Positions 183 to 11,991 of a stretch of DNA of 12,511 nt are shown piece after piece. Made by a program: the position numbers and the translations under genes. The notes under the pieces were generated by a model. The model was not told the origin of the DNA. It saw nothing but the letters and a program-made list of their open reading frames with translations, and ran no database searches. Position 1 is the stretch's first letter. Each line of letters starts with the position of its first letter. Source of the DNA: a virus (Duplodnaviria; Heunggongvirae; Uroviricota; Caudoviricetes); IMG/VR virus record IMGVR_UViG_2693429508_000013, one strand, 5' to 3'.

Positions 183-1265
183 TCATTTTCTCTGGCTGAT
201 CTTTACCGGATAACCATCCCGAAGATCAATTAAGTGCTCCGGTTCAGAAGCAAACCATGCATAAGATCCCCACGCCAATTCTGGTATTGCCTTTTTAAAA
301 GGCAGAGCACTTCTGTCCATAAATGCCGTAAGGAATGCAAGATTTTTCTCGCTGAACCCAGCGTCAATAGCCAAATGAGTGAGAGTAACTTTTCGTTCCC
401 TGTTTATAGGCCCATCTGTCGCAACTACTTCAGTGAAAACTACAAGCATGTCCGAACCCGTTCGGTCCTCTCCCAAATCAATCAAAATAATATCTGGAAG
501 TGCTTTTGAGGCATCAATATTCAGCCCCAATGCTTTTGCCAATACATCATCCTGAGCAACAACTTTATTCCCGGATTCAGACAACCAGAGCACAGTTGGA
601 TTCTTAAGAAAATTAGGAGCAAAAACTTCGATGACGGCCTTAGCTATTGTACTTGACGGGCCCGGAGCTAAAGTTCTCTTCTCTCCATTTGGGAAAGTGA
701 CGACTACGGCATCAGCAGCAATCACTGCCCCTGATTTCAATAAACGCAACCTAGCAAGAGCGGCTTTGTTCAAATGATTTTCTTGCCAGGAACTTATTGC
801 ACTCAGCAGCGAATCTCCTTCAAGCCCGGCATCAAAGAGTGCTGCAAAAGAGCGATTCAAACTGTAACGAGGACGAGAGGATGTGGTGGGTATACCTTTA
901 CGCTCAACAATTGCATTGCAAGGTATTAGGCCATTTTTTATAGTTTCATCACGTATTGGCTCACGCGTATTTTCCGCATACCATGCATCAGCAGGCCTTA
1001 TCTTTTGTTTAGAGAAAGTCATCTTTACCCAGCTTTCTCTGGACGCATCATCAGTAAGAGCAGCCTGCGAATCTCCCATACTTACAACCTGGCTGGGCCT
1101 TATCCATCGCCCCAGCCCCTCAACCGCACCAGCATAAAACATGACAAAAATTGTTTTTGCAGCTATTTCCCGAATTAAATATCCACGATTCTCAGTCCCT
1201 TCAGGGAAAATTAATTGTAATCTTTCCCGGATAACATTCAATGGGGGAACAACAGGCAGATTCAT
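183..1265 (-). CDS. Putative Type II restriction endonuclease, cognate to the upstream methyltransferase
   Basis: 360-aa ORF. Its ATG (1265-1263) overlaps the TGA stop of the methyltransferase gene (ATGA overlap on the minus strand), so M then R sit in one coupled operon. No methyltransferase motifs. The nuclease call rests on gene context and AT-rich cargo-like composition, not on a recognised catalytic motif. Confidence 0.55.
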   Translation of the reverse strand: MNLPVVPPLNVIRERLQLIFPEGTENRGYLIREIAAKTIFVMFYAGAVEGLGRWIRPSQVVSMGDSQAALTDDASRESWVKMTFSKQKIRPADAWYAENTREPIRDETIKNGLIPCNAIVERKGIPTTSSRPRYSLNRSFAALFDAGLEGDSLLSAISSWQENHLNKAALARLRLLKSGAVIAADAVVVTFPNGEKRTLAPGPSSTIAKAVIEVFAPNFLKNPTVLWLSESGNKVVAQDDVLAKALGLNIDASKALPDIILIDLGEDRTGSDMLVVFTEVVATDGPINRERKVTLTHLAIDAGFSEKNLAFLTAFMDRSALPFKKAIPELAWGSYAWFASEPEHLIDLRDGYPVKISQRK

Positions 1266-3094
1266 GCAATCATCACTCCATAGAAACCAGCGATAGTTCT
1301 CTCAATAATCCGTCTGTGGACGCCAGCATCAATTAACGATTGAATCTCCATCACCTGCTCCAGAGAAGGCAACGGGATTGAATTCAATTCATAGGCCGAA
1401 ACAGCAACACTTCCGCTTATACACCTGAACGCCCGATCGACAACATGCGAATTAAGTAGCATATCAATAACATCAGGGCGAACCGCAGAGAACAATCCGT
1501 TTGAATATACAATATTAATATGGTTTTCAACTACTACGCCACCAGTTTCATCTATAAATCCCTGAGGTAAAATTGCCGCTAAAATCCTTCTGTCCTGTTC
1601 CTTCGATGTTGTCCGCTGAACAAGCACACATTCAGATTTTGTCACAAGGAAACCCTGTTGTGGGGTTATATCGATATAGGGAACATGATTTTTTCTGTCT
1701 GCACTAAAACGAAAACCAGCTGAAGTTATTGATTCCGCCCAGACTAATGGGTAGCTATTTTTTCCTTTCGTCGTACGCAACTGCGACTTAAATCGATTCC
1801 AGACTAACTGACCTGTAGAGACTGAGTATCCCAGATCAGCTAAACGCGTAGACATCTGTTTTAATACATTAAGAAAACAGGCATCATCTTTAACGCGTGG
1901 CAAAAGCCACGTTGCTCCACCTTTTTCTATATCAACATTACCTATTTTCTCAATTTTTGCTTTGTTCAACCCCTTAGGGACAAGTGAGGATACCTGGGCC
2001 CGAACTTTATGTTCTCCCGCCTTGAATGCTGTCAACATTGTTTCCTGGAGAACATCGTCAAAGACCCCATCCCTGTCAGTGACGAAATCAAGGGCATACG
2101 GAGTAGTTTTTTCGGTCAAAAGGGTTCGCAGCGCGGTGAAATACTGCCCACCAAGAAAAGAAGTTGGCGTAAGAAATGCAATAACTCCTGTTTTCTCTTT
2201 AACCATGCGAACAGCTAAGTCGGTGAACAATCCATATAGATTTGCATGACCAAATAACGAACGAGAATATTTTTCTCTCGTTTTAATATCGAGAGTGACA
2301 CGTCCGTAAGGCGGATTCCCTACCACAAGATCATAACCAGAAAATTTATCTTGCTGAAGCGCATCAGCAACAATAATTGTATCTTCAGGCAATCTACGTT
2401 TTACCTTTACACATAGTGGCATTAGTACAGATTCGAGCAATACCAAACTCATCCAAGCCGCAAATGGATCGATTTCTATCCCCTTTAAACGACGACTGAT
2501 TCTCCTCAACATCCATTCAGGGGAAGACCCCTTGTCTTTTTTTAACATTCGAATGGCTACTGGTGCCAAAAATGCACCGCCACCACACGCAGGATCAATA
2601 ACCGATGCATGAGAAAAATCAACACCAGACTTTTCAGCCAGGTCCAAGAGACGCGCTACCAAAGGTGGGGGGGTATAGTAAGCCCCCAATTCCGAACGGT
2701 AAGCGGATGGCAGCATTACCGTATAAATTGACCCAATCAGATATCCAGCGTCCTCCGCCGGAAATTGAGCAATAAGCTCACCTGTTCGTTCAGCGAGCTC
2801 GCGTGCATCACATGGAATGTCTTCTATGTAAACAGTGTGCGGTACTGCCCTCATTTTAATGCTGCTTTTTTGCTTTTTTGCAAGGGTATCCCAATATGCA
2901 GCTACGATGCTGAAGCAGTATGAGCGGGCATGCATCAACCTTGACTGCCCGGTTTTGTAATTGCCCGCATAACCTTTGGCCATGGCTTTACAAGTTTGAT
3001 ATCTTTCCAGATTAGAAAACTCATTATCTGTAAAAAAATCAAAATGTTGCACATTCATAATGTAAAATCCTAATGTATCAAACATGCGGGCCAT
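1262..3094 (-). CDS. N6-adenine DNA methyltransferase, gamma class (Eco57I-like amino-MTase fold)
   Basis: 610-aa ORF with motif X (YYTPPPLV), motif I SAM-binding (VIDPACGGGAFL) and motif IV catalytic (DLVVGNPPYG) in the gamma-class order X-I-IV. The long C-terminal half is consistent with a target-recognition domain. ATG at 3094-3092. Confidence 0.88.
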   Translation of the reverse strand: MARMFDTLGFYIMNVQHFDFFTDNEFSNLERYQTCKAMAKGYAGNYKTGQSRLMHARSYCFSIVAAYWDTLAKKQKSSIKMRAVPHTVYIEDIPCDARELAERTGELIAQFPAEDAGYLIGSIYTVMLPSAYRSELGAYYTPPPLVARLLDLAEKSGVDFSHASVIDPACGGGAFLAPVAIRMLKKDKGSSPEWMLRRISRRLKGIEIDPFAAWMSLVLLESVLMPLCVKVKRRLPEDTIIVADALQQDKFSGYDLVVGNPPYGRVTLDIKTREKYSRSLFGHANLYGLFTDLAVRMVKEKTGVIAFLTPTSFLGGQYFTALRTLLTEKTTPYALDFVTDRDGVFDDVLQETMLTAFKAGEHKVRAQVSSLVPKGLNKAKIEKIGNVDIEKGGATWLLPRVKDDACFLNVLKQMSTRLADLGYSVSTGQLVWNRFKSQLRTTKGKNSYPLVWAESITSAGFRFSADRKNHVPYIDITPQQGFLVTKSECVLVQRTTSKEQDRRILAAILPQGFIDETGGVVVENHINIVYSNGLFSAVRPDVIDMLLNSHVVDRAFRCISGSVAVSAYELNSIPLPSLEQVMEIQSLIDAGVHRRIIERTIAGFYGVMIA

Positions 3095-4907: not shown

Positions 4908-5654
4908 TTACTTCACAACTCCCGGAAAGCTGACATTTGAACGCCAGCTATCCCAGTTAAACGTCACCCACCGACAACCGTTCATGGTCATGCGGTCCAT
5001 AATCCTCTCACCAAGAAGCGTGCTCATTGCGGCATGATTCAGGTTTGTTAACATCCCGACACTGCACAGTGATGCTGTCCGGCGATCAATTATCTGGTGC
5101 AATACCACCTGCTCGTTTTTCGTCTCCCGCTGAATGCCTATTTCATCCAGGACCAGCAAATCAACCCCGCAAAGCTCCTGTAAAAATTTTTCACCGGATT
5201 TGCCGTTGTCGTAGCTGTCATGCAACACGCTCATGACATCAGACACGGTGACGATAATCACGCTGCGCCCCTTCGCCATCAGCCAGTTACCCATCGCCGC
5301 TGCAAGGTGATTTTTCCCGGTGCCGGTTTTACCGCTGAACACAAAATTCGTGCACCCGGTCATCAGTTCGTCAGCTATGGATTTGGCCTGGCTCAGCGCG
5401 TATTTTTGCCCGTCGTTCTGCACCTGATAATTCGCAAACGAGCATTTGCTGTGCAGAGGCTGGATGCCCGAACGATTCAGGATTTTTTCCACCCGCAACT
5501 GGCGATTCTGGCGGTTAATCTCCTCGCTGCGTTTTCGTCCTTCAGCAAGTTGCCATTCCCGCCACTCCTCCACCGTCCGGTACGGTGGAACCGCCCCCTG
5601 TGGTGCAAGTCTGTGAATACGTTCAAGAACCCCGGCTGCCGCAATGTTTTTCAT
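4908..5654 (-). CDS. DnaC-like replicative helicase loader (AAA+ ATPase)
   Basis: 248 aa with Walker A (FSGKTGTGKNHLA) and Walker B (DLLVLDEIG). ATG 5654-5652 lies 6 nt after the TGA of the upstream O-like gene (coupling). Confidence 0.9.
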   Translation of the reverse strand: MKNIAAAGVLERIHRLAPQGAVPPYRTVEEWREWQLAEGRKRSEEINRQNRQLRVEKILNRSGIQPLHSKCSFANYQVQNDGQKYALSQAKSIADELMTGCTNFVFSGKTGTGKNHLAAAMGNWLMAKGRSVIIVTVSDVMSVLHDSYDNGKSGEKFLQELCGVDLLVLDEIGIQRETKNEQVVLHQIIDRRTASLCSVGMLTNLNHAAMSTLLGERIMDRMTMNGCRWVTFNWDSWRSNVSFPGVVK

Positions 5655-5660
5655 GCCACA

Positions 5661-6725
5661 TCACCCCCTGAATCCCGGCGGAATTTCGGTATCCGGTTCA
5701 GAAATATGATTCACACAACGCTGGTTGTTCGTGCCGCTTACCGGGAGCAACCAGGGGTTTTCAAAATTCCGGTCCGGCCCAAAAAACGTCGTCGCTCGCT
5801 GAACAAATTCCGTTCCCGCTTTCCCGGTCGCCGCCAGGTATCTCGCGTAACGCCTCACACCATCCAGCATGGTCTCTGGTGGCACCCCCTCGCGCAATCT
5901 GGCCTTCCAGGCACTGAATGCGGATTTCTTCGGGTTTGCCCCGGCACGCAACGGGTATTCCCGCCAGACCTGTTCGAACACATCCGGATAATCCACTCGT
6001 CCCACAGGCTGCCCGGTGTTTTCCGGGGCTACCCGATCGGCTTCCCGCTGAATGGCGGAATCGGCTTCAGGCTGCTGCAGTTGGAGTGATTGCTCCGGCC
6101 TTGCGGTCATCACCTGCTGCACAGCGCCCGAATCGGCTTTCAGCGCATACGCTGAATCGGCTTCCGGTGTCGAGCCTGCTGGCTGACCAGGATTGACGGT
6201 CTGAACATCCCCTGCCTGGTTCGTGGCGTTTTTTACGCCATGGACCATAGTGTTTTGATCTTCTTTATCTGTATCTTTATCTGTATCTGTCGTGACTCGT
6301 CGTGACATGTGCGTGACATTTCGTGACGCGCCGTGACAATCGCCATTTTGTTCCCGCTTTCTTTCCCTCTCTCGCTGCGCCCTCTTGCGCTCTGCAGGAG
6401 ATTTTGCGGTTTGCGAAATATTGCCGTTGTCCTCTTTAAGCACCTGGCGTTTTTCCCATCCAGTGATTAAATCACCATCAAGTACCCGCCCCTGCATCGT
6501 CTGCAAAATTGAATCAATTACCTCTTCTGTCACGTCGAGCGCACTTGCCAAATCTTCTGTCGTGACATCAATGTGACCTCGCGTGACATTTCGTGACGCG
6601 CTCACCAGGAGGTGGATATACACTGCCATCACTGTTGCAATTGGCTGCCCTGACACCCTGGCAATTGTTCGCCACTTAGGGTCATTTGGCATGTCATGCC
6701 ATAATCTGAGCCAGGCGTTAGCCAT
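5661..6725 (-). CDS. Phage replisome organizer / replication initiator (lambda O-like)
   Basis: ATG at 6725-6723 (MANAWLRLWHDMPNDPKW...), SD-like AAGAGG just upstream; the track ORF starts at a GTG at 6731. The N-terminal domain resembles phage replisome-organizer N-terminal domains. The central region is low-complexity, T/D/K-rich, and is encoded by the iteron DNA. Directly upstream of the DnaC-like loader. Confidence 0.8.
   Translation of the reverse strand: MANAWLRLWHDMPNDPKWRTIARVSGQPIATVMAVYIHLLVSASRNVTRGHIDVTTEDLASALDVTEEVIDSILQTMQGRVLDGDLITGWEKRQVLKEDNGNISQTAKSPAERKRAQRERERKREQNGDCHGASRNVTHMSRRVTTDTDKDTDKEDQNTMVHGVKNATNQAGDVQTVNPGQPAGSTPEADSAYALKADSGAVQQVMTARPEQSLQLQQPEADSAIQREADRVAPENTGQPVGRVDYPDVFEQVWREYPLRAGANPKKSAFSAWKARLREGVPPETMLDGVRRYARYLAATGKAGTEFVQRATTFFGPDRNFENPWLLPVSGTNNQRCVNHISEPDTEIPPGFRG
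6263..6337. repeat. Iteron cluster 1 plus adjacent AT-rich direct repeat (candidate origin) inside the O-like gene
   Basis: 12-bp direct repeat CTTTATCTGTAT x2 (6263-6286), followed by five CGTGAC hexamers at 6291, 6301, 6312, 6322, 6332 (10-11 bp spacing, one helical turn). Includes the 20-mer GCGTGACATTTCGTGACGCG at 6311-6330. Confidence 0.65.
6529..6600. repeat. Iteron cluster 2 inside the O-like gene
   Basis: CGTGAC at 6561, 6582, 6592, TGTGAC at 6572, and an inverted copy GTCACG at 6529-6534. An exact second copy of GCGTGACATTTCGTGACGCG at 6581-6600, 270 bp from the first. Confidence 0.6.
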
Positions 6726-6796
6726 ACTCACCTCTTCTGATACCGAATCTTTTTACTCACGAGTTGCCGGGAGCGATTCGATATGGCTATTGTCAG

Positions 6797-7222
6797 TCAA
6801 TGTACTGCCACAGCATTTCCTGCCGGGCCACCACGGTTCATCTGATTGAAACCGGCGATTGCCACTGCGACAAAATCATCAGCGTCTCTCACCAGTCGTT
6901 CATGCGTCTCCACCAGTTCCCGAAAATAAGCTGAACTGTGGCTGCGCATTCGAGCCACCAGCGGAGGTGGCATTGCCCTTTCGATCGCAGGTAACAACGC
7001 CTGAATTTTTTCAACAGCGTCAGGGGTGTCTTTATCCAGCCAACGGAAAATCTTTTGGGTGTTGAGATAAAGCGTGTTGTGCTTGCTGTCGTTATGCAGA
7101 ACCGGAAACGTCATTCCCAGTTCGAAATAAACCCTGGTTATTTCAGCTGCCGGAACTTTTTCACCGTCCGGATGCGCCCAGGCTTTCATCGCCATGCGGA
7201 TGTGTTCATGCTTGATTTTCAT
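6797..7222 (-). CDS. ydaT: YdaT-like protein (CII-like regulator family of Rac-type prophages)
   Basis: 141 aa, MKIKHEHIRMAMKAWAHPDGEKVPAAEI...; recognised from memory as YdaT-like. Its ATG overlaps the TGA of the upstream Cro-like gene (ATGA at 7219-7222). Confidence 0.75.
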   Translation of the reverse strand: MKIKHEHIRMAMKAWAHPDGEKVPAAEITRVYFELGMTFPVLHNDSKHNTLYLNTQKIFRWLDKDTPDAVEKIQALLPAIERAMPPPLVARMRSHSSAYFRELVETHERLVRDADDFVAVAIAGFNQMNRGGPAGNAVAVH

Positions 7223-7482
7223 GAATCAACCCCCGCCGATGGTTGTGTGTTAGCCTGAAACTCAGCAGGCAAGCCGTCAGTTGGGTTGGGGTAGGTTTTA
7301 CTGTCAATCTCATGTGGGGTCACCACCCATCCCGTTGCTTCACACCAACGTAATATTTTTTCTCCTGTAAGTTTTGCACGCCCCGTTATAACGTGGCTGA
7401 CCATCCCTTGGGATGCGCCAACAATCTCAGCAAATGAACTCTGGGTTATATGAAAATGATGCAAATATTCTCCAAGATTCAT
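7219..7482 (-). CDS. ydaS: YdaS-like Cro-type HTH protein
   Basis: ATG at 7482-7480 (MNLGEYLHHFHITQSSFAEIVGASQGMVSHVITGRAKLTGEKILRW...); the track ORF starts at a TTG at 7509. 87 aa, single HTH. Divergent from the repressor gene across an operator-bearing intergenic region. Confidence 0.75.
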   Translation of the reverse strand: MNLGEYLHHFHITQSSFAEIVGASQGMVSHVITGRAKLTGEKILRWCEATGWVVTPHEIDSKTYPNPTDGLPAEFQANTQPSAGVDS

Positions 7483-7517
7483 AATCCGCCCTATGTGATG
7501 TGTTACCAATGCATAAT

Positions 7518-7559
7518 TAATAGCACTGTTATTTTTAAAAGTAAATAGTGATGCTATTT
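7518..7559. promoter_or_regulatory. OR-like operator pair in the divergent promoter region
   Basis: Two 17-bp palindromic sites separated by 8 bp: TAATAG-CACTG-TTATTT (7518-7534) and AAATAG-TGATG-CTATTT (7543-7559, perfect 6-5-6 palindrome). They lie between the divergent Cro-like and repressor starts. Confidence 0.55.
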
Positions 7560-7593
7560 CAAAGTGATTAGCAATCTTATTAGAATTGGATGT

Positions 7594-8094
7594 ATGAAAA
7601 GAAAATCATTGTCAGACACCGACCTCAACGCCGCCAGAAGACTGAAAGAAATCTGGATGGCAAAGAAATCTCAGTTGGGATTGACTCAGGAACGTGCGGC
7701 GGAAATTATGGGGTTTTCAACACAAGGGGCGGTAAGTCACTACCTAAATGGTCAAACCCCACTAAACCTTGAGGCTGTTCTAAAGTTTGCTGGCTTACTG
7801 AAAGTTCCCCCTGAGTCAATCAGGCCAGACATGGTAGATTTGCTGCAAATTGCAAGGATGTATTGTCGAGAACCACAGCAAGATAACATAGTCGCATTAC
7901 CAGCAGACACAGAACAAACAGAGGATGAACTACCGTTTGCCGTAGAGCCGATGGAACGAGATTTAATCCATACGTTCAGAGCTTTTCCGAAAGAAGATCA
8001 AGAACACATGCTTCAGGAGATGAAAGATAAAAAAGAATCAATGGATCGTACGGTTGCGCGGTGGTTAGCTGCACAAAAAGGCCGTCGCGCCTAA
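7594..8094 (+). CDS. Phage repressor-like HTH regulator without a peptidase S24 domain (PaaR-like)
   Basis: ATG at 7594 (MKRKSLSDTDLNAARRLKEIWMAKKSQLGLTQERAAEIMGFSTQGAVSHYLNG...); the track ORF starts at a GTG at 7564. cI/434-type N-terminal HTH, acidic C-terminus, no Ala-Gly/Ser-Lys LexA-like features. First gene of a three-gene unit ending in parE. Confidence 0.75.
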   Translation: MKRKSLSDTDLNAARRLKEIWMAKKSQLGLTQERAAEIMGFSTQGAVSHYLNGQTPLNLEAVLKFAGLLKVPPESIRPDMVDLLQIARMYCREPQQDNIVALPADTEQTEDELPFAVEPMERDLIHTFRAFPKEDQEHMLQEMKDKKESMDRTVARWLAAQKGRRA

Positions 8095-8113
8095 ATCAGA
8101 GGAGATATGTAAA

Positions 8114-8308
8114 ATGAGTACAGTCCTTTCCCCAATGGTTTCAGAATTTGAGACAGTTGAGCAAGAAAATAGTTACAACGAATGGCTGCGGGCCAAAGTA
8201 GCAGCAAGCCTCGCGGATCCCCGCCCGGCGATTCCGCATGATGAGGTAATGGCGGAAATGGAACAAATTATTGCCCAAATTGCTGCTGCAACTCACAGAG
8301 GTGAATAA
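8114..8308 (+). CDS. paaA: PaaA2-like antitoxin, partner of ParE
   Basis: 64 aa, MSTVLSPMVSEFETVEQENSYNEWLRAKVAASLADPRPAIPHDEV...; SD GAGGAG 9 nt upstream. Stop overlaps the parE start (TAATG). Confidence 0.7.
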   Translation: MSTVLSPMVSEFETVEQENSYNEWLRAKVAASLADPRPAIPHDEVMAEMEQIIAQIAAATHRGE

Positions 8309-8598
8309 TGTTACCCGTTTTATGGCTACCATCTGCTCGTGATGATTTGCGCCAGATCGTAGCCTACATAGCTAAAGAAAATCCCGCGGCAGCACGCAGA
8401 ATGAAAATTCGAATTGAAACATCCGTTTTGCCGCTCACAGAGCATCCTTACCTGTATCCTCCAAGCGAGCGAGTTCTTGGTCTTCGTGAAATTGTAACTC
8501 ATCCTAACTACATCATCCTTTACCGAGTAACAGCATCAAGCATAGAAGTAGTAAATATTGTGCATTCTCGAAGACAGTATCCAGGCAAAAACAGTTAA
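8308..8598 (+). CDS. parE: ParE/RelE-family toxin
   Basis: 96 aa, MLPVLWLPSARDDLRQIVAYIAKENPAAARRMKIRIETSV... HPNYIILYRV...; typical ParE length and conserved segments. Translationally coupled to the antitoxin. Confidence 0.85.
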   Translation: MLPVLWLPSARDDLRQIVAYIAKENPAAARRMKIRIETSVLPLTEHPYLYPPSERVLGLREIVTHPNYIILYRVTASSIEVVNIVHSRRQYPGKNS

Positions 8599-8614
8599 TT
8601 ATTCCCGCCGACAG

Positions 8615-8637
8615 AACCACCTTAGGGTGGTTTTTTC
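8615..8637 (+). terminator. Rho-independent terminator after parE
   Basis: Stem AACCACC / GGTGGTT with loop TTAG (8615-8632), followed by a T-run (to 8636). Confidence 0.6.
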
Positions 8638-8652
8638 TTGCCCCAACAAAAA

Positions 8653-8694
8653 CAATAGCGATGCTATTTACATCAAAAAATAATGATGCTATTG
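8653..8694. promoter_or_regulatory. OL-like operator pair upstream of the rightward dicB-type operon
   Basis: Two 17-bp sites separated by 8 bp: CAATAG-CGATG-CTATTT (8653-8669) and AAATAA-TGATG-CTATTG (8678-8694). Same half-site consensus and spacing as the 7518-7559 pair. Embedded in a larger inverted symmetry AACAATAGC ... GCTATTGTT (8651-8696). Confidence 0.55.
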
Positions 8695-8875
8695 TTTCAG
8701 GCGTCAACCCACCCCGCCCCACAGAATGCAGGGCAATACTTCGAGTTACCAGACAGTGGTCAGGGGTTAAGTAGCCAGCCCGAGGCGTAAGAACATGACG
8801 GCAGGGTTCAATCTTTAACTATGCAGCAGGTTTTTTGTTCCGCCACCCCGGCGTTAAGGGGAAATGAGGTCAGCA

Positions 8876-9814: not shown

Positions 9815-10301
9815 AAAGTGAATTTTGTGATGCGGTGAATGCGGCTCAGCGCACGCGGCACAGTTAAAAAGCGATTAGTTCCCCCGTATCGGGTGGTTAT
9901 GGGTTTCCCTGTATCCGGCGTTAATTGTTAACTGGTTAACGTCACCTGGAGGCACCAGGCACCGCATCAACAAAGTTCACTTCGGTGATGAAAGGAAAGA
10001 GAAAATGTTGAATGTAGCTATTGAAAACCAGAACGGGTGGAATTATAGTGCACCTGCACCTTATAAAACGGGTGCCGGGCGTGGAAACCCGAACGTTACT
10101 CGAGCGCATAGCCGCGCTGAAGCGGTTTTTTTATGCGTAATGCACAGCTCCATTCAAATTATGGTGGGATGTGCAGGGCAGTCGCAAGACTGGCCGGGTT
10201 CTCGAGTGACCGGTATTTCCACCCCTGTACGTCTCACCACCCTTATGGTCGTGGAAAACCTCGGTGGTGAGTTAATTAACTTATCACTCGAGGATGCCAT
10301 C

Positions 10302-10859
10302 ATGGCTACTATCCCTGCCCTTTCTCACCCTGACGTAACCATCGAAAATGGTCGCGCTGTCACTACGTCTATTGCGATCGCAGAGTTCTTTGGCAAGCGT
10401 CACGACAATGTGTTACGTGCCATCGCAAATACTGAATGCTCACCTGAATTTAACGCCCTCAATTTTGAGGACGTCACCTACACTGACGCCAAAGGCGAAA
10501 AACGCCCGATGTACCAAATCACCAAAAACGGCTTCGTTTTCCTGGTGATGGGATTCACTGGCAAAAAAGCCGCTGCATTTAAAGAAGCCTACATTGCTGA
10601 GTTCGATCGCATGGAGGCCGAACTGCGCCAGAATAACACCCCACCCACTGACAAAATAATTCCAGGCGATGGCCGCACCCTGGTTGTTCACTTCGACGAA
10701 CGCGGCAACATCAGATTCACCGAAACCGTTCCTGATGGCGCACGGGTCTGTACCATGGAGACTTTCCGGTTTTATCTGGAAGAACAGGGATGGACTCTTG
10801 TTAACCGGGGCGCAATTAAAAATATGACTGTAGAGCAATTACTCAAAATTCATTGTTGA
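10302..10859 (+). CDS. rha: Rha-family phage regulatory protein
   Basis: ATG at 10302 with SD AGGA 7 nt upstream. 185 aa, MATIPALSHPDVTIENGRAVTTSIAIAEFFGKRHDNVLRAIAN ... YQITKNGFVFLVMGFTGKKAAAFKEAYIAEFDRME, i.e. a Rha N-terminal domain signature. An in-frame upstream ATG at 10005 would add 99 non-Rha-like residues. Confidence 0.8.
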   Translation: MATIPALSHPDVTIENGRAVTTSIAIAEFFGKRHDNVLRAIANTECSPEFNALNFEDVTYTDAKGEKRPMYQITKNGFVFLVMGFTGKKAAAFKEAYIAEFDRMEAELRQNNTPPTDKIIPGDGRTLVVHFDERGNIRFTETVPDGARVCTMETFRFYLEEQGWTLVNRGAIKNMTVEQLLKIHC

Positions 10860-10869
10860 GGACGCGATA

Positions 10870-11058
10870 ATGGAAACGTTATTACCAAACGTTAATACGA
10901 CTGAAGGTTGTTTTGAAATTGGTGTCACTATCAGTAACCCTGTATTTACTGAAGATGCCATTAACAAGAGAAAACACGAACGGGAGTCATTAAATAAAAT
11001 ATGCATTGTTTCAATGCTGGCTCGTTTGCGTCTGATGCAAAAAGGATGCTGGCGATGA
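10870..11058 (+). CDS. dicB: DicB-like cell-division inhibitor (copy 1)
   Basis: 62 aa, METLLPNVNTTEGCFEIGVTISNPVFTEDAINKRKHERESLNKICIVSMLARLRLMQKGCWR; SD GAGGA 7 nt upstream. Recognised from memory as DicB (62 aa in K-12 Qin). Confidence 0.8.
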   Translation: METLLPNVNTTEGCFEIGVTISNPVFTEDAINKRKHERESLNKICIVSMLARLRLMQKGCWR

Positions 11059-11246
11059 ATACAGCATTTGCACTCGTTCTGACCGTTATTCTTAATACGG
11101 GCGAACCAGCTGAACTGGTTACCGGAGTATACAACTCCATGAAAGAATGCGTGGCTGCTGCAGCTGAACAGAAAATTCCCGGTAACTGTTATCCGGTTGA
11201 TAAAATCATTCACCAGGATAATAAAGAAGTCCCGGCAGGTCTTTAA
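11055..11246 (+). CDS. ydfD: YdfD-like small membrane/lysis protein (copy 1)
   Basis: ATG at 11055 overlaps the dicB stop (ATGA), SD AAAGGA 8 nt upstream. 63 aa, MNTAFALVLTVILNTGEPAELVTGVY..., hydrophobic N-terminus. Same size and position as YdfD of Qin. Confidence 0.7.
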   Translation: MNTAFALVLTVILNTGEPAELVTGVYNSMKECVAAAAEQKIPGNCYPVDKIIHQDNKEVPAGL

Positions 11247-11334: not shown

Positions 11335-11604
11335 TACATTGCTGAGTTCGACCGCATGGAGGCCGAACTGCGCCAGAATAACACCCCACCTGCTGACAAG
11401 ATGATTCCGGGTGATGGTCGCACTCTGGTTGTTCACTTCGACAAATTCGGCAATGTCGAATTCACCGAAACCGTTCCTGATGGCGCACTGGTCTGTACCC
11501 TGGAGACTTTCCGGTTTTATCTGGAAAAACAGGGATGGACTCTTGTTAACCGGGGCGCAATTAAAAATATGACTGTGGAACAATTACTCAAAATTCATTG
11601 TTGA
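11335..11604 (+). pseudogene. Truncated rha copy (3' portion only) created by the tandem duplication
   Basis: Homology to rha begins mid-gene at the duplication junction. The rha frame opens just after a TAA at 11314-11316; the first ATG (11356) has no SD. Encodes only the C-terminal 82 residues (MEAELRQNNTPPADKMIPGDGRTLVVHFD...). Confidence 0.65.
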
Positions 11605-11614
11605 GGACGCAATA

Positions 11615-11803
11615 ATGGAGACGTTATTACCAAACGTTAATACGTCTGAAGGTTGTTTTGAAATTGGTGTCACTATCAGTAACCCTGTATTTACTGAAGA
11701 TGCCATTAACAAGAGAAAACACGAACGGGAGCTATTAAATAAAATATGCATTGTTTCAATGCTGGCTCGTTTACGTCTGATGCCAAAAGGATGTGCACAA
11801 TGA
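11615..11803 (+). CDS. dicB: DicB-like cell-division inhibitor (copy 2)
   Basis: 62 aa, METLLPNVNTSEGCFEIGVTISNPVFTEDAINKRKHERELLNKICIVSMLARLRLMPKGCAQ. Differs from copy 1 at 5 of 62 residues, mostly at the C-terminus. Confidence 0.8.
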   Translation: METLLPNVNTSEGCFEIGVTISNPVFTEDAINKRKHERELLNKICIVSMLARLRLMPKGCAQ

Positions 11804-11991
11804 ATACAGTATTTGCACTCGTTCTGACGGTTTTTCTTGTTTCCGGTGAACCGGTTGACATGGTTACTGGCGTATACAGCTCAATGAAAGAATGTATGAC
11901 TGCCGCAGCGAAACAGAAAATTCCCGGTGACTGTTATCCGGTCGATAAAGTTATTCACCATGATAATAACGAAATCCCGGCAGGTCTTTAA
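11800..11991 (+). CDS. ydfD: YdfD-like small membrane/lysis protein (copy 2)
   Basis: ATG at 11800 overlaps the dicB copy-2 stop (ATGA). 63 aa, MNTVFALVLTVFLVSGEPVDMVTGVY.... Differs from copy 1 at 16 of 63 residues. Confidence 0.7.
   Translation: MNTVFALVLTVFLVSGEPVDMVTGVYSSMKECMTAAAKQKIPGDCYPVDKVIHHDNNEIPAGL

Follow-up and report, generated by a model that had tools for sequence, protein, structure and literature searches.

The stretch of 12,511 nucleotides analysed here, from IMG/VR record IMGVR_UViG_2693429508_000013 (Caudoviricetes) and referred to throughout as the window, very probably contains the immunity region of a lambdoid prophage of the Shigella/E. coli group, in which the maintenance repressor is co-transcribed with a PaaA-ParE toxin-antitoxin pair lying in the place of rexAB; on the basis of our computational analysis we give this reading a probability of about 85%. 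The arrangement and its interpretation have already been published and tested for prophage CP-933P of E. coli O157:H7, and the window holds a new allele of it. A first-pass annotation of this DNA had pointed to a resemblance to the paaR-paaA-parE operons of O157 prophages; the resemblance is real, and the CP-933P literature states the same interpretation (PMC8630535, PMC9986795). The difference lies in the repressor allele, in which nature has joined a DNA-binding domain of the lambda cI type to a PaaR/DicA tail, provided with operators of its own.

A three-gene operon under purifying selection

Three co-oriented genes occupy positions 7594-8598 of the plus strand. The first one (7594..8094), identified from the list of open reading frames (ORFs) and from matches to helix-turn-helix (HTH) families, encodes the immunity repressor, of 166 aa counted from the ATG; it is followed by paaA (8114..8308), encoding an antitoxin of 64 aa, and parE (8308..8598), encoding a toxin of 96 aa. 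The gap of 19 bp between the repressor gene and paaA contains no terminator, and paaA and parE are translationally coupled through the motif TAATG, in which the paaA stop codon (TAA, 8306-8308) and the parE start codon (ATG, 8308-8310) have one base in common. Shine-Dalgarno sequences were found upstream of both start codons, GAGGAG at 9 nt from that of paaA and GAGGTG at 5 nt from that of parE. The operon ends at an intrinsic terminator on the same strand (8613..8641), recognised from its folding energy and U tract and kept in related loci; its hairpin has a 9-bp G+C-rich stem (8613-8634) and a folding energy of -15.1 kcal/mol (z = -3.3). These data bear out the operon, the coupling and the terminator that the first-pass annotation had described.

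Compared with four diverged alleles, each of the three genes showed a ratio of nonsynonymous to synonymous substitutions (dN/dS) of 0.04-0.09 at a saturated dS (> 1), which implies that the three ORFs are genuine constrained genes and not chance ORFs. This result bears on the idea that the module is no more than a dead remnant of a cryptic prophage in decay. Such an idea finds some basis in the defective state of CP-933P and of the prophage carrying a 99%-identical locus (L001), in a related locus where the repressor gene is broken, and in the presence of a ParE2-like gene in only one of 50,697 phage records. We nevertheless regard it as very unlikely, since all three frames are intact and have good ribosome-binding sites, dN/dS is low across alleles with saturated dS, and the operators, promoters and terminator are conserved. 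The module is apparently functional.

A promoter-like site internal to the operon (7681-7709) and terminator-like sites on the minus strand within the genes were also returned by our scans. They were judged to be chance occurrences, as the counts approximated the shuffle expectation and the plus-strand frames are under strong purifying selection.

A hybrid repressor lacking a peptidase domain

The only Pfam matches of the 166-aa repressor were HTH_3 (8e-9) and HTH_31. Its residues 2-81 aligned with the N-terminal domain of lambda cI, the basic N-terminal arm included (phmmer 2.9e-9, 1lmb), and the Foldseek matches listed comprised lambda cI N-terminal domain structures, with template modelling (TM) scores of 0.86-0.93 and an identity of about 34-40%, and otherwise HTH proteins. 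Lambda cI was also the closest repressor in the phage records (31% identity), and proteins 100% and 99% identical to that of the window are annotated in Shigella sonnei. The repressor residues E33 and E37 align with the acidic residues E34 and D38 of lambda cI, which are the positive-control residues in contact with sigma-70.

The 76 residues that follow the N-terminal domain are predicted to be disordered and then helical. An AlphaFold2 model of the protein, with a mean predicted local distance difference test (pLDDT) score of 77.7, has five helices at residues 8-90, a disordered linker at 92-118, and a short helix plus a 33-residue helix spanning 119-165, with no beta structure at all. Peptidase_S24 gave no Pfam match at E <= 0.01 or at E <= 10, either with the full protein or with residues 90-166, and no S24 structure or beta domain was present in the model or among the Foldseek matches listed. 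With no S24 match and a short helical C-terminus, the repressor does not belong to the LexA-like (S24) family, whose C-terminal domain has a Ser-Lys dyad and an Ala-Gly cleavage site, despite its predicted cI-like DNA binding. The first-pass annotation had proposed a cI-type HTH protein devoid of S24 features, and both parts of that proposal hold. According to the model, the protein is composed of a lambda-cI-type N-terminal domain (residues 1-90), a linker (about 92-118) and a helical C-terminal domain of the PaaR/DicA type (119-166).

The C-terminal module matched positions 74-130 of the 135 in the DicA model (NCBIfam PRK09706, 7e-8, a score under the cutoff of the model), and the last 50-60 residues of the repressor showed 47% identity to PaaR2 (over about 60 residues) and 56% to the repressor of a second O157:H7 paralogue, locus L003. 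This module is common to PaaR2 (123 aa), the L003 repressor (133 aa) and many DicA-like proteins of 132-133 aa, and the N-terminal domains of the proteins that carry it do not align with one another. No PDB sequence matched the C-terminal domain, and no solved structure of it was found among the Foldseek matches listed. Judging from these alignments, the repressor is a domain-swapped relative of PaaR1 and PaaR2 and not their orthologue. The alignment to PaaR2, PaaA2 and ParE2 that the first-pass annotation had put forward therefore stood in full for the toxin and the antitoxin, whereas for the repressor it stood only in the C-terminal 50-60 residues; its alignment to the cI family was obtained as anticipated. 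The PaaR2 sequence was taken from phage Evi, reached by a ParE2 tblastn search, whose repressor starts with MQKKE as published for PaaR2; none of the repressor homologues has this start.

A group of longer relatives, of 240-255 aa (P0013-P0023), combines a cI-type N-terminal domain with a second HTH domain of the DicA/PaaR1 type and the same C-terminal tail. They seem to be repressors in which two distinct DNA-binding domains are joined.

The antitoxin and the toxin

The antitoxin had PF21217 PaaA2 as its sole Pfam match (3e-23, 81.9 bits, cutoff 27), and it also matched NCBIfam NF050103 (94.3 bits, cutoff 50) and, in a PDB sequence search, the solved PaaA2 3zbe (1.4e-23). Its 64 aa, the lack of a DNA-binding domain and the position of its gene directly 5' of parE are those of the PaaA family. 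The toxin matched PF05016 ParE_toxin (2e-17, 64.1 bits, cutoff 23) and, along residues 1-93, the solved ParE2 5cw7_B (6.7e-37, PDB sequence search). By analogy with ParE2, it would be toxic, with SOS induction or topoisomerase poisoning; the strong purifying selection is consistent with a working parE, without proving its function. PaaA2 counteracts its partner ParE and is broken down by ClpAP/ClpXP, properties demonstrated for PaaA2 alone (PMC8630535).

In local alignments the identity to PaaA2 was 75-79% and that to ParE2 was 67%, values suggesting that the pair of the window belongs to a toxin-antitoxin specificity group different from paa2. The pair of L003 was closer for the toxin (PaaA 78%, ParE 86%). 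By elimination, L003 is inferred to be the paaR1-paaA1-parE1 operon of CP-933M, because this O157:H7 copy is not identical to the PDB ParE2 sequence; if L003 is taken as paa1, the 86% ParE identity would place the pair of the window in the paa1 group. The account of Hallez 2010 contained in PMC4803016 describes paaR-paaA-parE as a three-component system in which the PaaA-ParE complex represses partially and full repression requires PaaR, and states that PaaA1 and PaaA2 do not cross-neutralise.

Operators and promoters in a lambdoid layout

A 15-bp palindrome, AATAGC-N3-GCTATT, has four matches in the window when up to two mismatches are allowed, and all of them lie in two regulatory regions; in random sequences of the same composition, 0.5 matches are expected per window and 0.02 per 333 nt of intergenic DNA. 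In the divergent region upstream of the repressor gene we assigned an OR1-like right operator AATAGCACTGTTATT (7519..7533), with one mismatch, half-sites that are kept and a centre that varies among alleles; an OR2-like operator AATAGTGATGCTATT (7544..7558), a motif match whose half-sites are conserved among alleles; and a weak OR3-like operator ATTAGCAATCTTATT (7567..7581), with three mismatches, which overlaps the putative repressor promoter at a position conserved among alleles. Downstream of the terminator, two left operators (OL) were found, the perfect palindrome AATAGCGATGCTATT (8654..8668), overlapping the -35 element of a pL-like promoter, and AATAATGATGCTATT (8679..8693), overlapping its spacer and -10 element. 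The matches are spaced by 25 bp in both regions. Among five more loci encoding repressors of 75-80% identity, the central bases differ and the outer half-sites are kept, as would be expected of operators. Measured from the repressor ATG, the operator centres are at 20, 43 and 68 bp, compared with 19, 42 and 66 bp from the cI ATG for OR3, OR2 and OR1 of lambda.

Three promoters accompany these sites. A pR-like promoter on the minus strand (7517..7545), read from the sequence, consists of the -35 element TTTACT (7545-7540), a 17-bp spacer and the -10 element TATTAA (7522-7517); its layout relative to its two operators is the same as that of the pL-like promoter, and it is conserved in the five related loci. 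The promoter scan detected a pRM-like promoter (TTCAAA-17-TAGAAT, 7558..7586) and the pL-like promoter (TTTACA-17-TATTGT with an extended -10 TG, 8667..8695), both on the plus strand, the latter reading into DUF1391, rha and dicB genes. The TAGAAT element ends 7 nt upstream of the repressor ATG (7594), a spacing equal to that of paaR2 in CP-933P/Evi, and the predicted +1 falls at or beside the ATG; no Shine-Dalgarno sequence precedes this ATG, and an in-frame GTG located upstream lacks conservation among related loci. The missing Shine-Dalgarno sequence and the paaR2-like spacing make a leaderless repressor mRNA likely, as leaderless translation has been demonstrated for paaR2 of CP-933P (PMC8630535).

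On the other side of the divergent region, the minus strand carries ydaS (7219..7482), encoding a Cro-like regulator of 87 aa (HTH_3; phrog_35 repressor family, 8e-17; annotated in L001 over the same coordinates), and ydaT (6797..7222), encoding a CII-like activator of 141 aa (Pfam YdaT_toxin, 5e-9; phrog_163 'CII-like transcriptional activator', 3e-40). The motif TTGATT-N6-AATCAA is present once in the window (0.07 expected by chance), at the ydaS/ydaT junction (7212..7229); this OM-like candidate operator of YdaT matches exactly the motif that was footprinted with YdaT at the ydaS/ydaT junction of CP-933P (PMC9986795). Past ydaT, on the same strand, the gene order continues with a replication initiator (5661-6731) and a DnaC-like helicase loader (4908-5654), and on the plus strand parE is followed by DUF1391 (ydfA-like), a 125-aa gene, a Rha-family gene, dicB and DUF1482 genes. 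Divergent repressor and cro genes that share multipartite operators, with a second operator set at the early-left promoter, are the marks of lambdoid immunity, and the layout is that of a canonical lambdoid immunity region with the repressor at the cI position and paaA-parE at the rexAB position. The divergence from a Cro-like gene and the placement of the module in the cI locus, both claimed in the first-pass annotation, are thereby upheld. The same immunity region occurs at 99.3% DNA identity in E. coli FDAARGOS_944, in a defective lambdoid prophage adjoining a tRNA-Ser gene, and the L001 prophage is defective through insertion sequence (IS) insertions and frameshifts in the terminase, portal and Q genes.

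This layout weighs against the notion that the 166-aa protein regulates only the toxin-antitoxin operon, as a split-off DNA-binding function of the antitoxin, with the immunity gene lying outside the window. PaaA has no DNA-binding domain, so that the regulator could be its missing half, an idea discussed by Jurenas et al. (PMC8630535), and the window represents no more than 12.5 kb of the prophage. Yet the same operators, in identical geometry, stand at the pR-like promoter of ydaS-ydaT and at the pL-like promoter 1.1 kb away; lambda cI has a homologous N-terminal domain; PaaR2 has been shown to repress PR and PL of CP-933P (PMC8630535); and across the whole L001 prophage no second repressor-like gene is annotated. 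We therefore hold a role confined to the toxin-antitoxin operon to be extremely improbable.

A direct repeat of 31 nt with 71% identity links the region 3' of the pL -10 element (8686-8716) to the region of the YdaT site (7208-7238). Its second copy lacks TTGATT-N6-AATCAA, and the repeat is probably due to chance.

Comparison with CP-933P, L003, lambda and Qin

The paaR2-paaA2-parE2 operon sits in the immunity region of CP-933P in E. coli O157:H7 (Hallez 2010; Jurenas 2021, PMC8630535), where paaA2-parE2 replaces rexAB and PaaR2 replaces CI (Prolic-Kalinsek et al. 2023, PMC9986795). PaaR2 was called a CI analogue 'despite lacking sequence similarity' by Jurenas et al.; it binds OR and represses PR, PL and, at high level, PRM, has no peptidase motif and is insensitive to mitomycin C, while YdaS and YdaT act as Cro and CII (PMC8630535). 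The same report describes octamerisation of PaaR2 with looping between OR and OL, a bistable locus, and the stabilisation of a mini-F plasmid by the RAE2 locus through post-segregational killing (PMC8630535).

The locus of the window shares with CP-933P and phage Evi (LR597642) the gene order, the operon, its position between ydaS-ydaT and the early-left genes, the operators at both OR and OL, the YdaT site at the ydaS/ydaT junction and a repressor without S24; its pL-like promoter is analogous to PL933P, which is repressed by PaaR2 (PMC8630535). YdaT is 86.5% identical to its counterpart in Evi, a phage with a ParE2 that shows no difference from the PDB chain (100% identity). In contrast, the N-terminal domain of the repressor is unrelated in sequence to that of PaaR2 (166 aa versus 123 aa), the operators are AATAGC-N3-GCTATT in place of the GTTTAGTAA-type repeat of CP-933P, and YdaS is only 30% identical. 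Of the features that go with octamerisation and looping of PaaR2, the window shows the shared C-terminal domain and the pair of OR and OL regions 1.1 kb apart.

L003 has the closest toxin-antitoxin pair among the named systems, and its DNA homology to the window starts at about repressor residue 125, continues over paaA, parE and the terminator and reaches the early-left genes. It differs in the repressor N-terminal domain (a DicA-like protein of 133 aa), in the operators and in the Cro-like gene, which is replaced. With lambda, the window shares three operators at near-equal distances from the repressor start codon and accessory genes co-transcribed 3' of the repressor, whereas a 48-residue helical domain takes the place of the S24 C-terminal domain, the operator sequence differs, and paaA-parE and YdaS/YdaT stand for rexAB and Cro/CII. 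DicA, from the Qin prophage of E. coli K-12, resembles the repressor in its C-terminal domain, and its gene is placed alike, in a lambdoid prophage that is defective and ahead of ydfA-ydfB-ydfC-dicB-type genes; its N-terminal HTH domain is not the same, and dicA is not known to be followed by a toxin-antitoxin pair in the K-12 Qin map.

Proposed working of the locus and points that weigh against it

We propose that the repressor would be made from a leaderless mRNA starting at the pRM-like promoter, and that its lambda-cI-type N-terminal domain would bind palindromes of 15-17 bp, AATAGC-N3-GCTATT, at three sites lying between the divergent promoters and at two sites of the pL-like promoter 1.1 kb away. 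Binding would silence ydaS (the Cro analogue), ydaT (the CII analogue) and the early-left operon, and from the OR2-like site the repressor probably stimulates its own promoter. The short helical C-terminal domain, common to PaaR1, PaaR2 and DicA, would serve oligomerisation and not RecA-dependent self-cleavage. PaaA would neutralise ParE by direct binding, so that upon loss of the region the labile PaaA would decay and ParE would poison the cell, making the immunity region addictive. YdaT would drive the operon from a pRE-like start through the TTGATT-N6-AATCAA site. The switch would rely on competition between Cro and the repressor (bistability), or possibly on an antirepressor, and not on SOS cleavage. 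Gene content, homologies, the layout of operators and promoters, the absence of S24 and purifying selection were observed directly; for leaderless translation, actual DNA binding, addiction and the oligomeric state we infer from homology that the locus behaves as CP-933P does, a system in which published experiments back each of these steps (PMC8630535, PMC9986795, PMC4803016).

Several observations weigh against this account. The homology to PaaR1 and PaaR2 is confined to the last 50-60 residues of the repressor, at 47-56% identity, so that its DNA binding, cooperativity and autoregulation are deduced from lambda and the layout and not from PaaR2 data. The -10 element of the pR-like promoter is poor, and the consensus scan did not call this promoter because TATTAA lacks the final T. 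The OR3-like site, with its three mismatches, is the weakest operator assignment, and no third OL operator was found within three mismatches, leaving two OL sites here versus three in CP-933P. The operator motif was derived from these very sites, which makes its significance partly circular, although its conservation in other alleles mitigates this. Finally, even in the model system CP-933P, ParE2 activity was undetected in either expression state (Jurenas et al., PMC8630535), which makes the physiological role of the toxin tentative.

Derepression and the Rha module

RecA-stimulated self-cleavage of the repressor, which the first-pass annotation had considered an unlikely route to derepression, is excluded as far as a sequence can exclude it, given the lack of an S24 domain and the all-helical model. 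That annotation had suggested that derepression may depend instead on an antirepressor or on toxin-antitoxin stoichiometry. The trigger would in the first case be the product of the Rha-family gene (10305-10859, plus strand; Phage_pRha, 2e-32), acting as an antirepressor on the S24-less repressor, with its synthesis gated by two RNAs encoded directly upstream on the same strand. These are an isrK-like small RNA (10056-10132; Rfam, 61 bits) and a C4 antisense RNA (10157-10244; Rfam, 76.7 bits), both above the gathering score. The C4 segment CTCGAGTGA (10201-10209) is the exact reverse complement of 10284-10292, which overlaps the rha Shine-Dalgarno sequence, and the segment CTCACCACC (10233-10241) is that of 10263-10271 in the rha leader; the energy of a long-range C4 duplex is uninformative alone, and we used these two exact 9-nt complementarities. 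An ORF of 284 aa (10005-10859) runs in frame through isrK and C4 into rha. Presumably the logic of this module resembles that of the c4-icd-ant operon of P1.

The order of isrK, C4 and rha matches the isrK-orf45-anrP module of Gifsy-1, where AnrP, described as resembling an anti-repressor, increases antQ transcription when expressed (PMC4825925); a supplementary legend of that article lists an orf45-anrP fusion of 287 aa in S. dysenteriae. Together with the position of the two RNAs, the complementarities and the annotation of several of the PHROG families matched by Rha as anti-repressor, this circumstantial support makes an RNA-gated antirepressor plausible, if unproven. As the explanation of derepression we nonetheless find it rather unlikely. 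The PHROG matches come mostly through the shared N-terminal pRha domain, and the likeness to AnrP lies in gene order and not in a sequence comparison. Moreover, rha belongs to the pL operon, which the repressor itself should silence; L003 and L004, which have the same repressor C-terminal domain, show no rha within about 5 kb of the operon in the stretch fetched; no LexA box was found; and switching of CP-933P has been explained by competition between PaaR2 and YdaS plus stationary phase, without an antirepressor (PMC8630535). A search of the window for the LexA box (CTGT-N8-ACAG, at most one mismatch) gave five matches versus 3.9 expected, none of them upstream of rha. One of these, CTGTTATTTTTAAAAG (7526-7541), is a one-mismatch core lying in the pR spacer, with the OR1-like operator on one side and the OR2-like one on the other; with a count at chance level, it is probably meaningless.

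Immunity cassettes and the slot behind the repressor

When compared by BLAST with L003, the homology of the window breaks at 7293, inside ydaS, and at 7967, at about repressor residue 125, and no DNA similarity was detected between 7294 and 7966. These breaks suggest a swappable immunity cassette composed of the N-terminal part of Cro, the OR operators and the N-terminal domain and linker of the repressor; judged from the sequences, the C-terminal domain, paaA and parE remain together across such swaps.

A paaA-parE pair of any type was found in 842 of 5426 complete E. coli genomes, 72 of which have the cI-type immunity cassette; this exact allele (at least 99% identity) was found in two genomes, and the single ParE2-like gene in the phage records is that of phage Evi. 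The figure of 842 was obtained with a distant search mode, as megablast with paaA-parE recovered only 6 genomes because the alleles are too diverged.

The genes that follow related repressors vary. In L012-L014 they are paaA-parE; in L009-L011, HipA_2 and DUF3037 follow a two-HTH repressor of 244 aa (gene at 3001-3735 in L009); in L018-L019 (3001-4339), of the Salmonella diarizonae type, HigB-HigA is found; and in the Salmonella loci L015-L017 (3001-3915) the slot holds an uncharacterised 112-120-aa protein. This variation points to a cargo hotspot for toxin or defence genes and keeps alive, beside addiction, the view that paaA-parE is mainly anti-phage or exclusion cargo, a 'moron' in the rexAB slot guarding the lysogen. 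The presence of the rexAB exclusion genes at this position in lambda (PMC9986795) and the lack of ParE2 activation in either transcriptional state (Jurenas et al., PMC8630535) agree with that view. However, the homologous RAE2 locus stabilises mini-F by post-segregational killing (PMC8630535), and no phage-defence phenotype is reported for PaaA-ParE in the literature cited here. We consider a mainly protective role possible, with the odds clearly against it, and one pair could fulfil both roles.

In one related locus, L006 (2005-2391, E. coli Z1323CEC0012), the repressor is annotated as broken, in the form of a partial HTH pseudogene and a separate 87-aa 'regulator'. Despite the broken repressor, paaA and parE are intact in this locus.

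Other features of the window

The early-right region of the prophage carries, on the minus strand (183-3094), a restriction-modification pair of the PstI/BsuBI type. The endonuclease (183-1265, 360 aa) has both BsuBI_PstI_RE domains, and its gene overlaps by 4 bases that of an N6-adenine methyltransferase of 610 aa (1262-3094) with Eco57I and N6_Mtase matches. In the early-left region, a tandem duplication with a period of 745 bp (10590-10889 and 11335-11634; at least 300 nt at 92% identity) contains the 3' end of rha a second time, only as an 82-aa C-terminal fragment (11356-11604). It extends across dicB (10870-11058 and 11615-11803) and the DUF1482 gene (11001-11246 and 11746-11991), as seen from paired ORFs that match in sequence and have the same 745-bp offset.

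Biological meaning

As a discovery the locus matters little, since a ParE pair behind an S24-less CI analogue in an immunity operon was already known. Part of its value lies in the repressor: a true lambda-cI N-terminal domain on a PaaR-type tail, together with a geometry like that of the lambda OR, links both systems by homology, and the hybrid would be a convenient one with which to study the function of the PaaR tail that stands where lambda cI has its S24 domain.

A speculative extension, to which we assign a low likelihood, is that the conserved C-terminal domain, beyond oligomerisation, provides a shared surface for receiving a single signal, to which heteroimmune prophages would all respond simultaneously; possible signals are an RNA-gated antirepressor of the Rha/AnrP type and the PaaA-ParE complex. 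If this were true, toxin-antitoxin status or one antirepressor could derepress several otherwise independent prophages together, and the 244-aa two-HTH relatives (P0013-P0023) would be dual-specificity repressors.

The paaA-parE genes are common in E. coli chromosomes and nearly absent from isolated phages, perhaps because the prophages that carry them are defective or not induced by SOS. Three heteroimmune cassettes adjoin homologous toxin-antitoxin genes, which agrees with the published idea that recombinants losing the pair are penalised by it.

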